Shown here: positions 42,757 through 47,432 of the stretch, in pieces
How positions within the stretch are numbered: the stretch's first letter is position 1
Layout of the letters: every line of letters starts with the position of its first letter
Origin: Escherichia coli
Lineage (GTDB): Bacteria; Pseudomonadota; Gammaproteobacteria; Enterobacterales; Enterobacteriaceae
Reading direction: 5' to 3' (one strand)
Length of the DNA: 64,000 nucleotides
Assembly (NCBI RefSeq): GCF_050320075.1
Contig: NZ_CP190018.1
Position numbers and translations under genes: made by a program
Notes under the pieces: generated by a model
The model's input: the letters and a program-made list of their open reading frames with translations, nothing else
What the model was told of the DNA's origin: nothing
Databases searched by the model: none

Positions 42757-45432
42757 TTACTTCAACATATTACGAATGACATAATGCAAAATGCCGTCGT
42801 TCTGGTAGTAGGTCAACTCCGTCGCGGTGTCGATACGACAACGGCAGGGTACGACTTCCTGGCTACCATCCGCGCGCGTAAACGTCACCGGAACCGTCGC
42901 GCCGGGTTGTAGACTTTGCAGATCGACAATATCAATCTTCTCTTCCCCGATTAGCCCTAACGTTTTACGCGTCACGCCTTGCGGAAATTCTAGCGGCAGG
43001 ATGCCCATGCCAATTAAATTCGAACGGTGAATTCGTTCAAACGATTCGGCAATCACCACACGAATTCCAAGCAGACGAGGACCTTTTGCCGCCCAGTCAC
43101 GGCTGGAGCCTGATCCATACTCTTTCCCGGCAATCACCGCCAGCGGCGTTTGCTCCTGCTTATAGCGCATCGCGGCATCATAAATAGAGATGACCTCGCT
43201 GTCAGGTAAATGCCGCGTCATCCCCCCTTCAACGCCAGGCACCATTTCATTACGGATGCGAATATTGGCGAAGGTGCCGCGCATCATCACTTCATGGTTA
43301 CCACGCCGCGAACCGTAGGAGTTAAAGTCTTTTCGCTCAACACCCCGGCCTTGTAGATATCGACCCGCTGGGCTGTCGGGCTTAATACTGCCCGCCGGAG
43401 AGATATGGTCAGTGGTGACTGAATCCCCAAGCATTGCGAGGATCCGCGCACCGTGAATATCTTCCACAGGTGCTGGTGTTGCCTGCATTTCATCAAAGAA
43501 AGGCGATAAGCGAATATAGGTTGAATCCTCCTGCCAACCGTAGGTATCGGATCGTGCGACGTTAATTTCCTTCCACTCTGCTATGCCTTCAAAAACTTCT
43601 GCGTACTCTTTACGGAACATTTCTGTGGAGACTTGTTCTACCGCACGGGCAATTTCTTGTGCCGATGGCCAGATATCTTTCAGATATACCGGATCGCCTT
43701 TGCGATCGTGACCAATAGGCTCAGATGCGAGGTTGATATTCATATTTCCCGCCAGCGCATAGGCAACCACCAGCGGCGGCGAGGCCAGCCAGTTGGTTTT
43801 AACCAGCGGATGGATACGGCCTTCAAAGTTACGGTTGCCGGACAGCACTGCACCGACGGTTAAATCGCCTTTTTTGATTGCCGTTTCGATAGGATCGGGC
43901 AGCGGCCCAGAGTTACCAATACAGGTGGTACAACCATATCCCACAAGGTTAAACCCCAGTTCGTCGAGATACGGTGTCAATTTCGCTTTTGCCAGATAGT
44001 CAGAAACAACTTTCGAGCCTGGTGCCAGCGACGCTTTGACCCACGGTTGCCGCTTGAGGCCCAGAGTTACGGCTTTTTTCGCCAGCAAGCCTGCGGCCAT
44101 CAGCACACTTGGGTTAGAGGTATTGGTGCACGACGTTATCGCTGCAATGACCACAGCGCCATCAGGTAACTGATACTGATGTCCGTTCATAACATAATCG
44201 ACCGGCTGGCGATCTTTATGCGTGGCATTTACTTCCAGTTCGTTACTGGCGGCAAATGCTTTTGGTACATCGGGCAGTGCAACGCGATCCTGTGGGCGTT
44301 TTGGCCCTGCCAGGCTCGCTTCAACGTCATTCATATCCAGTTCTAACGTACTGGTAAAAATCGGTTCATCGCCCGGGTTACGCCACATGCCCTGCGCTTT
44401 GGCGTATTTTTCGACCAACTCGACCTGATCTTCACTGCGCCCGCTTAAACGCATGTAATCGAGGGTGACAGCATCGATTGGGAAGAAGCCACAGGTGGCA
44501 CCATATTCTGGCGACATATTGGCAATGGTGGCGCGATCCGCCAACGGTAGTGAATCCAGACCATCACCATAAAATTCGACGAATTTCCCCACCACGCCAT
44601 GTTTGCGCAGCATTTGGGTAACGGTGAGAACCAGGTCTGTGGCGGTAATACCTTCACGTAATTTTCCGGTGAGTTTAAAGCCCACTACGTCCGGGATAAG
44701 CATGGAAACCGGCTGACCTAACATTGCGGCTTCTGCTTCGATCCCCCCCACGCCCCACCCCAGCACGCCAAGGCCGTTGATCATGGTGGTGTGCGAGTCA
44801 GTACCAACGAGTGTATCCGGATAAGCAATCCATTCACCGTCCTGCAATTCGCTCCACACTGCTTTGCCGAGATATTCGAGGTTAACCTGATGGCAAATGC
44901 CTGTGCCTGGCGGCACGACGCTAAAACGACTGAACGCCTGCTTTCCCCATTTCAGGAACACATAACGTTCGTGGTTGCGCTCCATTTCCAGGCGCACGTT
45001 TTCTTCAAATGCCTCATCATCACCAAAACGATCGACGGTCACCGAGTGGTCAATGACCAGGTCGACCGGTGAGAGCGGGTTAACCTTTGCAGTATCGCCG
45101 CCGAGGCGTTTAACCGCTTCGCGCATTGCCGCCAGATCAACAACGGCAGGTACGCCGGTAAAGTCCTGCATCAGCACCCTTGCCGGGCGGTAGGCAATTT
45201 CACGGTCAGCATGGGCATTTTTCAGCCATCCCGCCAGCGCGTAGATATCCTCTTCGGTAACCGAGTTACCATCCTGCCAGCGCAGCAGGTTTTCGAGCAA
45301 AACTTTGAGTGACTTAGGCAAACGGGTGATATCGCCCAGTGATTTGGCAGCAAGCGGCAGGCTGTAGTAGTGGTAAGTTTTATCTTTGGCCTGCAACGTG
45401 TCCTTACTGGCTTCTCGTAGGGTTGACGACAT
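42757..45432 (-). CDS. acnA: Aconitate hydratase A
   Basis: 891 aa, [34 protein letters not shown]…. Confidence 0.95.
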
Positions 45433-45595
45433 AGCTCCTCCTTAATGACAGGGTTGCGAAGCCCTGATTCTCTTCAGGGTGAATATTAAAGATAACACAA
45501 ACATCGCGTAACGATTTGATAACAACCCAAATTGATAAAAGAGGAGAAAGCTTGTGGCAAAACAAATGAAAACCCCGCCGCAGCGGGGTCAGGGA

Positions 45596-45691
45596 TCAGT
45601 GAGTAATGATCCAGAGGAGTTCGGCCCAGAAGAGCATCGACAGAGAAAATGCGCCCATCCAGGACCAATATTTCATATTTGTGTTGATCAT
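45596..45691 (-). CDS. Candidate 31-aa hydrophobic small protein (MINTNMKYWSWMGAFSLSMLFWAELLWIITH)
   Basis: Short ORF below the track's length cut-off, found by hand in the acnA upstream region; an AAGGTG-like motif lies ~7 nt upstream; single predicted TM helix. Whether it is translated is unknown. Confidence 0.35.
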   Translation of the reverse strand: MINTNMKYWSWMGAFSLSMLFWAELLWIITH

Positions 45692-45804
45692 AGGCTACAC
45701 CTTTAACGGTTATTACTTTGTGTTGAGATAACTCAACCTGTTATTGCTGCGGTGTATTAAAAGCCCTGTAATTCATTAAAAATGGGTAATAAGAATGATG
45801 ATAA

Positions 45805-45972
45805 TTATTGTTTCGGCTGATCATCTTCAGCAAACAGTTCTATAAAGGCTTGCTGCTGCGATGTTAGTTGCCAGTCGTCTGGAATAACGACGGAACATTC
45901 CCGTTTCGTTTCTGTTTCATTGTCACTATGCTGGCATAATGGTGACGACTCCAGTTGCTCCTGACCGACCAT
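45805..45972 (-). CDS. yciX: Small protein YciX
   Basis: The in-frame start MVGQEQLESSPLCQHSDNETETKRE… gives 55 aa, the K-12 YciX length as I recall it; position between cysB and acnA. Symbol assignment is from memory. Confidence 0.6.
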   Translation of the reverse strand: MVGQEQLESSPLCQHSDNETETKRECSVVIPDDWQLTSQQQAFIELFAEDDQPKQ

Positions 45973-45974
45973 AG

Positions 45975-46115
45975 TTATCCCCACACTTTCCAAATCAGCA
46001 GTGCGACAACCACCCAGAAAAGTGCAGAACCAAGAAAAACCGCCAGCCAGGCTTTACGTTTTAATTCAGGATCGCGGCGGGGTTCCTGATTTCCAGAAGG
46101 CATTGCTAACCTCAT
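45975..46115 (-). CDS. ymiA: Small membrane protein YmiA (46 aa)
   Basis: Hand-found ORF MRLAMPSGNQEPRRDPELKRKAWLAVFLGSALFWVVVALLIWKVWG with one TM helix; ends 3 nt before the yciX start. Symbol assignment is from memory. Confidence 0.55.
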   Translation of the reverse strand: MRLAMPSGNQEPRRDPELKRKAWLAVFLGSALFWVVVALLIWKVWG

Positions 46116-46433
46116 ATAATCGCCATCACTTATCAGAAAGACGTTGAACGATTGGTGTAATTAATCATACGATGAGACAAATCCTAAAGAAACTTTAGTC
46201 AAAAATCCAGCGAATTTACGAATCGTCTCCAGTGAATAATTCAATCTTTTGACCTGAAATAGATATTTGAAAACTGGAGTTTGCGAGGCGGGTAATTAGA
46301 CACTACTTTACAGGTAATTTACCCTATAAATATGAGGGATAAAAATATTGTGCACGGTATACAAATAAGCAACAAAAGAGAATATATTCCGGCACCTTCG
46401 CTACATAAAAGGTGCCGAAAATAACGCAAGAAA

Positions 46434-47432
<999 letters not shown>

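Follow-up and report, generated by a model that had tools for sequence, protein, structure and literature searches.

The 31-codon open reading frame between cysB and acnA of Escherichia coli is ymiC, an already annotated small membrane protein gene

Does the spacer between cysB and acnA of Escherichia coli hold an overlooked small protein, or does the short open reading frame (ORF) closest to acnA serve that gene as an upstream ORF (uORF)? The question arose from a reading of the letters alone (hereafter, the sequence-only reading) of a 64,000-nucleotide stretch of an E. coli genome, referred to as the window, which had picked out three small ORFs between the two genes, named two of them ymiA and yciX, and proposed that the third, of 31 codons, encodes a single-helix membrane peptide that was either unannotated or a uORF for acnA. 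All three ORFs are indeed present on the minus strand, and the names of the first two are right, as both identity to K-12 and annotation agree. The finding as a whole is real but ordinary: the 31-aa ORF is a genuine, already annotated small membrane protein. The first half of the proposal, a genuine single-helix membrane peptide, thus stands, while the unannotated status does not and the uORF role is unlikely.

The spacer covers positions 45433..46433 of the window, and both flanking genes as well as everything between them lie on the minus strand, in the order cysB-ymiA-yciX-ymiC-acnA that is likewise found in K-12. Upstream of the spacer is cysB (46434..47408), and downstream is acnA (42757..45432), which by its ORF and the K-12 annotation encodes the 891-aa aconitate hydratase A. 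The ORF list and homology place ymiA, encoding a 46-aa single-pass membrane protein (K-12 b4522), at 45975..46115, and the ORF list together with K-12 identity places yciX, encoding a 55-aa acidic soluble small protein (K-12 b4523), at 45805..45972. The latter length counts from the ATG; the mechanical ORF list starts yciX at a TTG at 45993 instead. The gene of the 31-aa small membrane protein, ymiC (K-12 b4741), occupies 45596..45691, an assignment that draws on the ORF, Pfam and NCBIfam matches, selection and the literature, and its translation is exactly MINTNMKYWSWMGAFSLSMLFWAELLWIITH. Two distances had been given slightly wrong: the ymiA stop and the yciX ATG are separated by 2 nt (TAA-CT-ATG) rather than 3 nt, and the end and the start of ymiC lie at distances of 163 nt and 259 nt from the acnA ATG, not ∼100 nt upstream of it. 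The Shine-Dalgarno sequence considered plausible for the 31-codon frame can be read as AAGGTG (45698..45703, minus strand), 6 nt 5' of the ATG, and a GGTG or GGT element sits at the same site in most orthologs.

The genes ymiA, yciX and ymiC are already-known E. coli small-protein genes. The supposedly unannotated ORF is ymiC, b4741 (YP_009518771.1) in K-12, and it is annotated across RefSeq E. coli, where the three genes carry the labels yciX, ymiA and “ymiC: small membrane protein YmiC”. Of 5,426 complete E. coli genomes, 5,421 contain the spacer region, with identities of 95-100%. YmiC matched the Pfam family PF23694 “YmiC-like” with 87.5 bits (cut-off 27) over positions 1-31 of 31 and the NCBIfam model NF041484 with 66.3 bits (cut-off 42); for YmiA, the corresponding scores were 125.9 bits against PF22868 (cut-off 27) and 96.8 bits against NF000536 (cut-off 30). 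YciX matched no Pfam or NCBIfam model. YmiA of the window is 100% identical to K-12 YmiA, as is YciX to the K-12 locus over 55 aa. Likewise, the window peptide is identical to K-12 YmiC, occupies the same place between yciX and acnA, and matches the curated models over their full length, while the K-12 locus shows just one synonymous difference within ymiC and a weaker T-tract in the terminator that follows it. As ymiC has been annotated in K-12 since 2018 and is covered by dedicated models in Pfam and NCBIfam, nothing is gained here in terms of gene finding, yet a reader working from raw sequence was able to pick out a genuine gene of 31 codons. What novelty remains resides in a polymorphism of the terminator and in the relationship between YmiA and YmiC. 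YciX orthologs diverge fast except for a C-terminal motif, W-x-L-[TS]-x-QQ-x-AFI-[DE]-x-F, and a Salmonella study placed yciX in the Cpx regulon.

An ORF of this size would not by itself be remarkable, given that the same 3.5 kb contain dozens of ORFs of 20-70 aa and that an ORF of ymiC's size alone is not above chance. What sets ymiC apart from a chance frame is its conservation in related genomes. Spacers between cysB and acnA were collected from a contig search with the AcnA N-terminus, which among the matches listed covered about ten Enterobacteriaceae and neither Salmonella nor Klebsiella, and the sample was enlarged with contigs encoding YmiC relatives. The ymiC frame was intact, with 31-33 codons, in 10 lineages, and the intact orthologs include those of Enterobacter cloacae, three other Enterobacter-labelled species, Pseudocitrobacter, Superficieibacter and three further genomes. 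Across the 25 codons that could be aligned, pN/pS averaged 0.37 in frame, whereas the two shifted frames gave 0.89 and 1.43; dN/dS ranged from 0.12 to 0.39 where it was computable, and third codon positions varied most. Frame conservation and dN/dS, which the sequence-only reading had put forward as a check on its candidate, hence speak for a coding region, and the substitution pattern rules out a chance ORF. Within an alignment of seven sequences, K7, Y8, W9, S10, W11, S18, L20, F21 and W22 of YmiC are invariant. The YmiC family is tiny: a set of 1.84 billion proteins contains just 17 representatives at 50% identity, each of which carries this same motif. Every genome in which a YmiC relative was found shows the synteny cysB-ymiA-(yciX)-ymiC-acnA. 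Together, the coding substitution pattern and the intact frame show that the YmiC peptide is under purifying selection and hence that the peptide itself is the functional product.

The distribution of the gene is patchy. Among the cysB-acnA spacers in the matches listed, those of two Citrobacter species, Mangrovibacter and E. albertii had no ymiC, and YmiA is kept in Citrobacter and Mangrovibacter. In the two Citrobacter species (L002 2213..2500; L005 2190..2500), ymiA and yciX are both retained, and their spacers lack ymiC as well as any plus-strand terminator ahead of acnA; judging by these two species, ymiC and its terminator appear to have been gained or lost as one module. The spacer of E. 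albertii NBRC 107761 (L003 2242..2500) measures just 259 nt and has lost ymiA, yciX and ymiC alike, and it keeps a fragment of the block upstream of ymiA as well as the terminator hairpin of ymiC. In E. coli EC261, ymiC is interrupted by an inserted IS1A (L083 2595..3452). The gene is therefore dispensable in nature, being missing in some species and split by IS1 in one E. coli strain, and the set of small genes between cysB and acnA is confined to part of the Enterobacteriaceae.

Expression evidence has been published for all three products, YmiA, YciX and YmiC. YmiC was detected by immunoblotting of a chromosomal SPA-tag fusion and was positive in tetracycline ribosome profiling, in the study that named the gene and listed the same sequence with the same neighbours (VanOrsdel 2018). 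The start of YmiA, at MRLAMP, was settled by ribosome profiling of initiation complexes, and the protein was detected by targeted mass spectrometry. More recently, a 2024-25 study identified 17 small proteins as induced under Mg2+ starvation, with YmiC and YmiA among them, reported a Ribo-RET signal for YmiC, and referred to ymiA-yciX-ymiC as an operon. In the same study, a reporter of the region upstream of ymiA was PhoQ-dependent and a reporter of the region just upstream of ymiC had negligible activity; since the low-Mg2+/PhoQP-driven promoter lies upstream of ymiA, ymiC, at the end of the operon, is controlled together with the two genes before it. GFP-YmiC and GFP-YmiA both localised to the cell periphery, the published work placing YmiA and YmiC in the inner membrane, in line with the proposal of a membrane peptide, though the best 19-aa hydropathy window of YmiC, at 1.54, is borderline for a transmembrane (TM) helix. 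At low Mg2+, neither deletion nor overexpression of ymiC led to a phenotype. Overexpression of YmiA slowed growth whereas that of YmiC did not.

Aligning eight Enterobacteriaceae revealed a conserved non-coding block 5' of ymiA (46161..46270, minus strand) with invariant runs that include TTTAGGATTT..TC and TCAAAAGATT, and presumably this block contains the operon promoter together with regulator sites. When the sequence and the alignment upstream of ymiA were inspected by eye for a canonical PhoP box, only the degenerate half-sites AGTTTC and GATTTG were found, and the paper reporting the PhoQ dependence mentions no PhoP box. A sigma-70 scan returned no minus-strand promoter in 45433..46433 and therefore can place neither the operon promoter nor any ymiC-proximal promoter. 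In several species, the block upstream of ymiA gives rise to look-alike spurious ORFs. A published information-theory scan predicted a strong cluster of Fur sites at acnA -371, corresponding to ∼45790..45810 on the minus strand of the window; this predicted cluster falls just past the yciX stop, where the AT-rich stretch AATAATTATCATCATTCTTATTA is found, and 5' of the 5' end of the Rfam element STnc180 discussed below.

At its other end, the unit is followed by a predicted intrinsic terminator (45559..45590, minus strand; terminator scan and folding), an 8-bp GC-rich stem, GACCCCGC/GCGGGGTT, with a T-rich tail. The stem begins 5 nt past the ymiC stop and folds with -16.4 kcal/mol. All 11 ymiC-bearing lineages examined have a comparable hairpin followed by a T-tail, and the consensus has nine pairs, four of them with compensatory changes. 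The gap between stop codon and stem amounts to 5-15 nt in nine of these 11 lineages; in the other two it is wider, with 37 nt (Pseudocitrobacter) and 63 nt (Enterobacter sp. Ag1). Beyond the terminator lies the P2 promoter region and 5' untranslated region (UTR) of acnA (45433..45545, minus strand), delineated by near-invariance and published mapping: a block of ∼110 nt 5' of acnA is nearly invariant in ten taxa, including those without ymiC. Published mapping puts the P2 start at -50/-51 and also identifies the -10 box, which in the window corresponds to a start site near 45482 and to GTTATCTT at 45489..45496; the 5' UTR contains a hairpin, CAGGG...CCCTG, at 45449..45466. The P2 start is located 113 nt downstream of the ymiC stop, and ymiC is not part of the P2 transcript. 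Judged from these sequence features, the terminator right after ymiC ends the unit just 5' of a separately conserved acnA P2.

Two other readings of the ymiC segment have to be weighed against that of a protein-coding gene. One takes its cue from Rfam, whose family STnc180 (RF02079) matches 45562..45764 on the minus strand, that is the ymiC leader, coding sequence and terminator, over model positions 1-208 of 208 and with 201.6 bits against a gathering score of 50. According to this reading, STnc180 is a non-coding, Hfq-binding small RNA (sRNA), or a dual-function RNA, in which the 31-codon ORF is incidental or secondary. The full-length match, the recovery of STnc180 by Hfq co-immunoprecipitation in Salmonella and the typical sRNA-like terminator at the end of the unit would all fit an sRNA. 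Against it, the discovery paper, which derived STnc180 from cDNA of Salmonella Hfq co-immunoprecipitates, saw only bands of 500-2000 nt and judged them likely processed mRNA species; the consensus of the Rfam model itself translates to an intact YmiC-like ORF, and its consensus structure consists only of separate hairpins. What lies at this element is a conserved ORF whose substitutions show codon periodicity and preserve the reading frame, rather than an RNA of the sRNA type assigned by Rfam. Moreover, the published work detected YmiC as a protein and found hardly any promoter activity directly upstream of its gene. A pure sRNA is ruled out by the evidence for translation, and we regard the reading in its broader form as very improbable. 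STnc180 and the ymiC segment are the same element end to end, yet typed as an sRNA in one case and evidenced as coding region, leader and terminator in the other; the most fitting view of STnc180 is that of a segment of the ymiC mRNA, which may have a base-pairing role beside coding, and the Rfam family would be better described as ymiC mRNA.

The other reading revives the uORF proposal and casts ymiC as primarily a cis-acting uORF or leader peptide for acnA: a ribosome ending at ymiC would mask the 5' arm of the terminator and so permit read-through, whereby ymiC translation would tune acnA on transcripts started upstream, either at the ymiA operon or at a distal acnA promoter, P1. The latter reportedly lies at about -407, and its transcript would contain ymiC within a long leader. 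That the stem follows the stop codon so closely in E. coli and most other lineages would suit such a device, and one study included ymiC-acnA in its list of potential, uncharacterised uORF pairs that have a 3' end <200 nt downstream (Adams et al. 2021). However, the 3' end recorded in that study maps to acnA +4, not to the ymiC terminator, and is not Rho-dependent; published ends near the acnA start codon comprise this 3' end and a 5' end at -5, and RNA processing may take place there. The mapped P2 start, a position that the sequence-only reading had singled out as telling, is downstream of both ymiC and the conserved terminator and counts against a uORF. Gaps as long as those in Pseudocitrobacter and Enterobacter sp. 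Ag1 exceed what a terminating ribosome could bridge to mask the stem, and this variable spacing rules out a strict ribosome-masking attenuator. Besides, YmiC is conserved at the amino-acid level over the full length of its helix and accumulates as a protein in the membrane, while Citrobacter and E. albertii, which are devoid of ymiC, keep an almost identical acnA promoter region. The P2 position, the variable spacing and the ymiC-less species with their acnA promoter block together speak against an obligatory leader-peptide role of ymiC for acnA. A useful comparison is mdtU-mdtJI, where premature termination depends on a uORF (Adams et al. 2021): as with ymiC, a small ORF precedes a larger gene on the same strand and a 3' end falls between the two, but ymiC encodes a conserved peptide that is targeted to the membrane, it precedes the main acnA promoter, and the spacing of its stop codon and terminator is not conserved. 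Overall, we deem a primarily cis-acting role of ymiC in acnA expression unlikely, albeit less so than the sRNA reading.

We are thus left, with considerable confidence, with the reading that the locus consists of the known genes ymiA, yciX and ymiC, that the YmiC peptide is the product, and that a PhoQP-responsive operon is ended by the terminator, with YmiC possibly tuning a partner protein. Here, low Mg2+ acts via PhoQP to drive transcription from the promoter upstream of ymiA through ymiC, and YmiC would insert into the inner membrane with its N-terminus in the cytoplasm. By analogy, YmiC might then bind a larger inner-membrane protein via its aromatic face, K-YWSW...S-LFW, and tune this partner during Mg2+ limitation or envelope stress, as MgrB and MgtS do with theirs. 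The terminator, for its part, would mainly insulate acnA from the ymiA-yciX-ymiC operon. MgrB and MgtS resemble YmiC in being small (31-47 aa), induced at low Mg2+ via PhoQP and located in the inner membrane; they differ in having defined partners and phenotypes, whereas deletion or overexpression of YmiC is without effect, and the likeness is one of size, regulation and location. Given the lack of a ymiC phenotype at low Mg2+, modulation of a larger membrane protein is proposed by analogy.

YmiA and YmiC have a TM motif in common, K-x2-W-x3-F-x2-S-x-LFW, and hhalign aligned the two families with a probability of 93% and a score of 30.7. As a control, 300 column-shuffled YmiA alignments gave a mean score of 10.1 (standard deviation 2.8; maximum 21.2), which places the YmiA-YmiC score ∼7 standard deviations above the shuffled controls. 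In Pfam, the two families are weak cross-hits of each other, this being the only non-self match for YmiC. The proteins are also alike in operon and localisation, and they differ in that YmiA carries a charged N-terminal tail of 20 residues and a WKxWG C-terminus. YmiA and YmiC are probably paralogs that arose by an old tandem duplication, bearing in mind that similarity between short TM segments can also stem from convergence. Given the common W-x3-F-x2-S-x-LFW core, YmiC would likely bind the partner of YmiA or one related to it. Paralogy would suggest studying the two small proteins jointly and might explain why the single deletion is without a phenotype.

The terminator, finally, is polymorphic within E. 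coli. Its T-tract reads TTTTCATTTGTTTT in the window, the stronger version, versus TTGTCATTTGCTTT in K-12, where two substitutions are found (L001 1995..2010). Besides, some strains lack 14 bp, and with them the 3' arm of the hairpin (L082, between 1690 and 1691); a junction-specific query detected this deletion allele in 1,138 of 5,426 complete E. coli genomes (21%); a longer query over the deletion junction had exact matches in ATCC 11775 and Nissle 1917. With the terminator weakened in K-12 and deleted in about a fifth of E. coli, strict insulation of acnA is not maintained. The terminator might therefore be an evolvable insulator: wherever the hairpin is missing, as in the strains with the 14-bp deletion, Nissle 1917 and the type strain among them, and in Citrobacter, PhoQP-driven transcription at low Mg2+ would read into acnA, and in strains with an intact hairpin, ymiC translation could modulate the read-through. 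We offer this as a tentative extension that is rather more doubtful than not; if true, the stress-stable aconitase would join the response to Mg2+ limitation in a lineage-specific manner. Either way, the deletion allele represents a natural experiment on the transcriptional coupling between a small-protein operon and acnA. A database variant of YmiC with 63 aa (P0001) can be traced to the same stretch of DNA, as here the stop is read through into the deleted-terminator sequence and the protein ends in ...FINLGCYQIVTRCLCYL.
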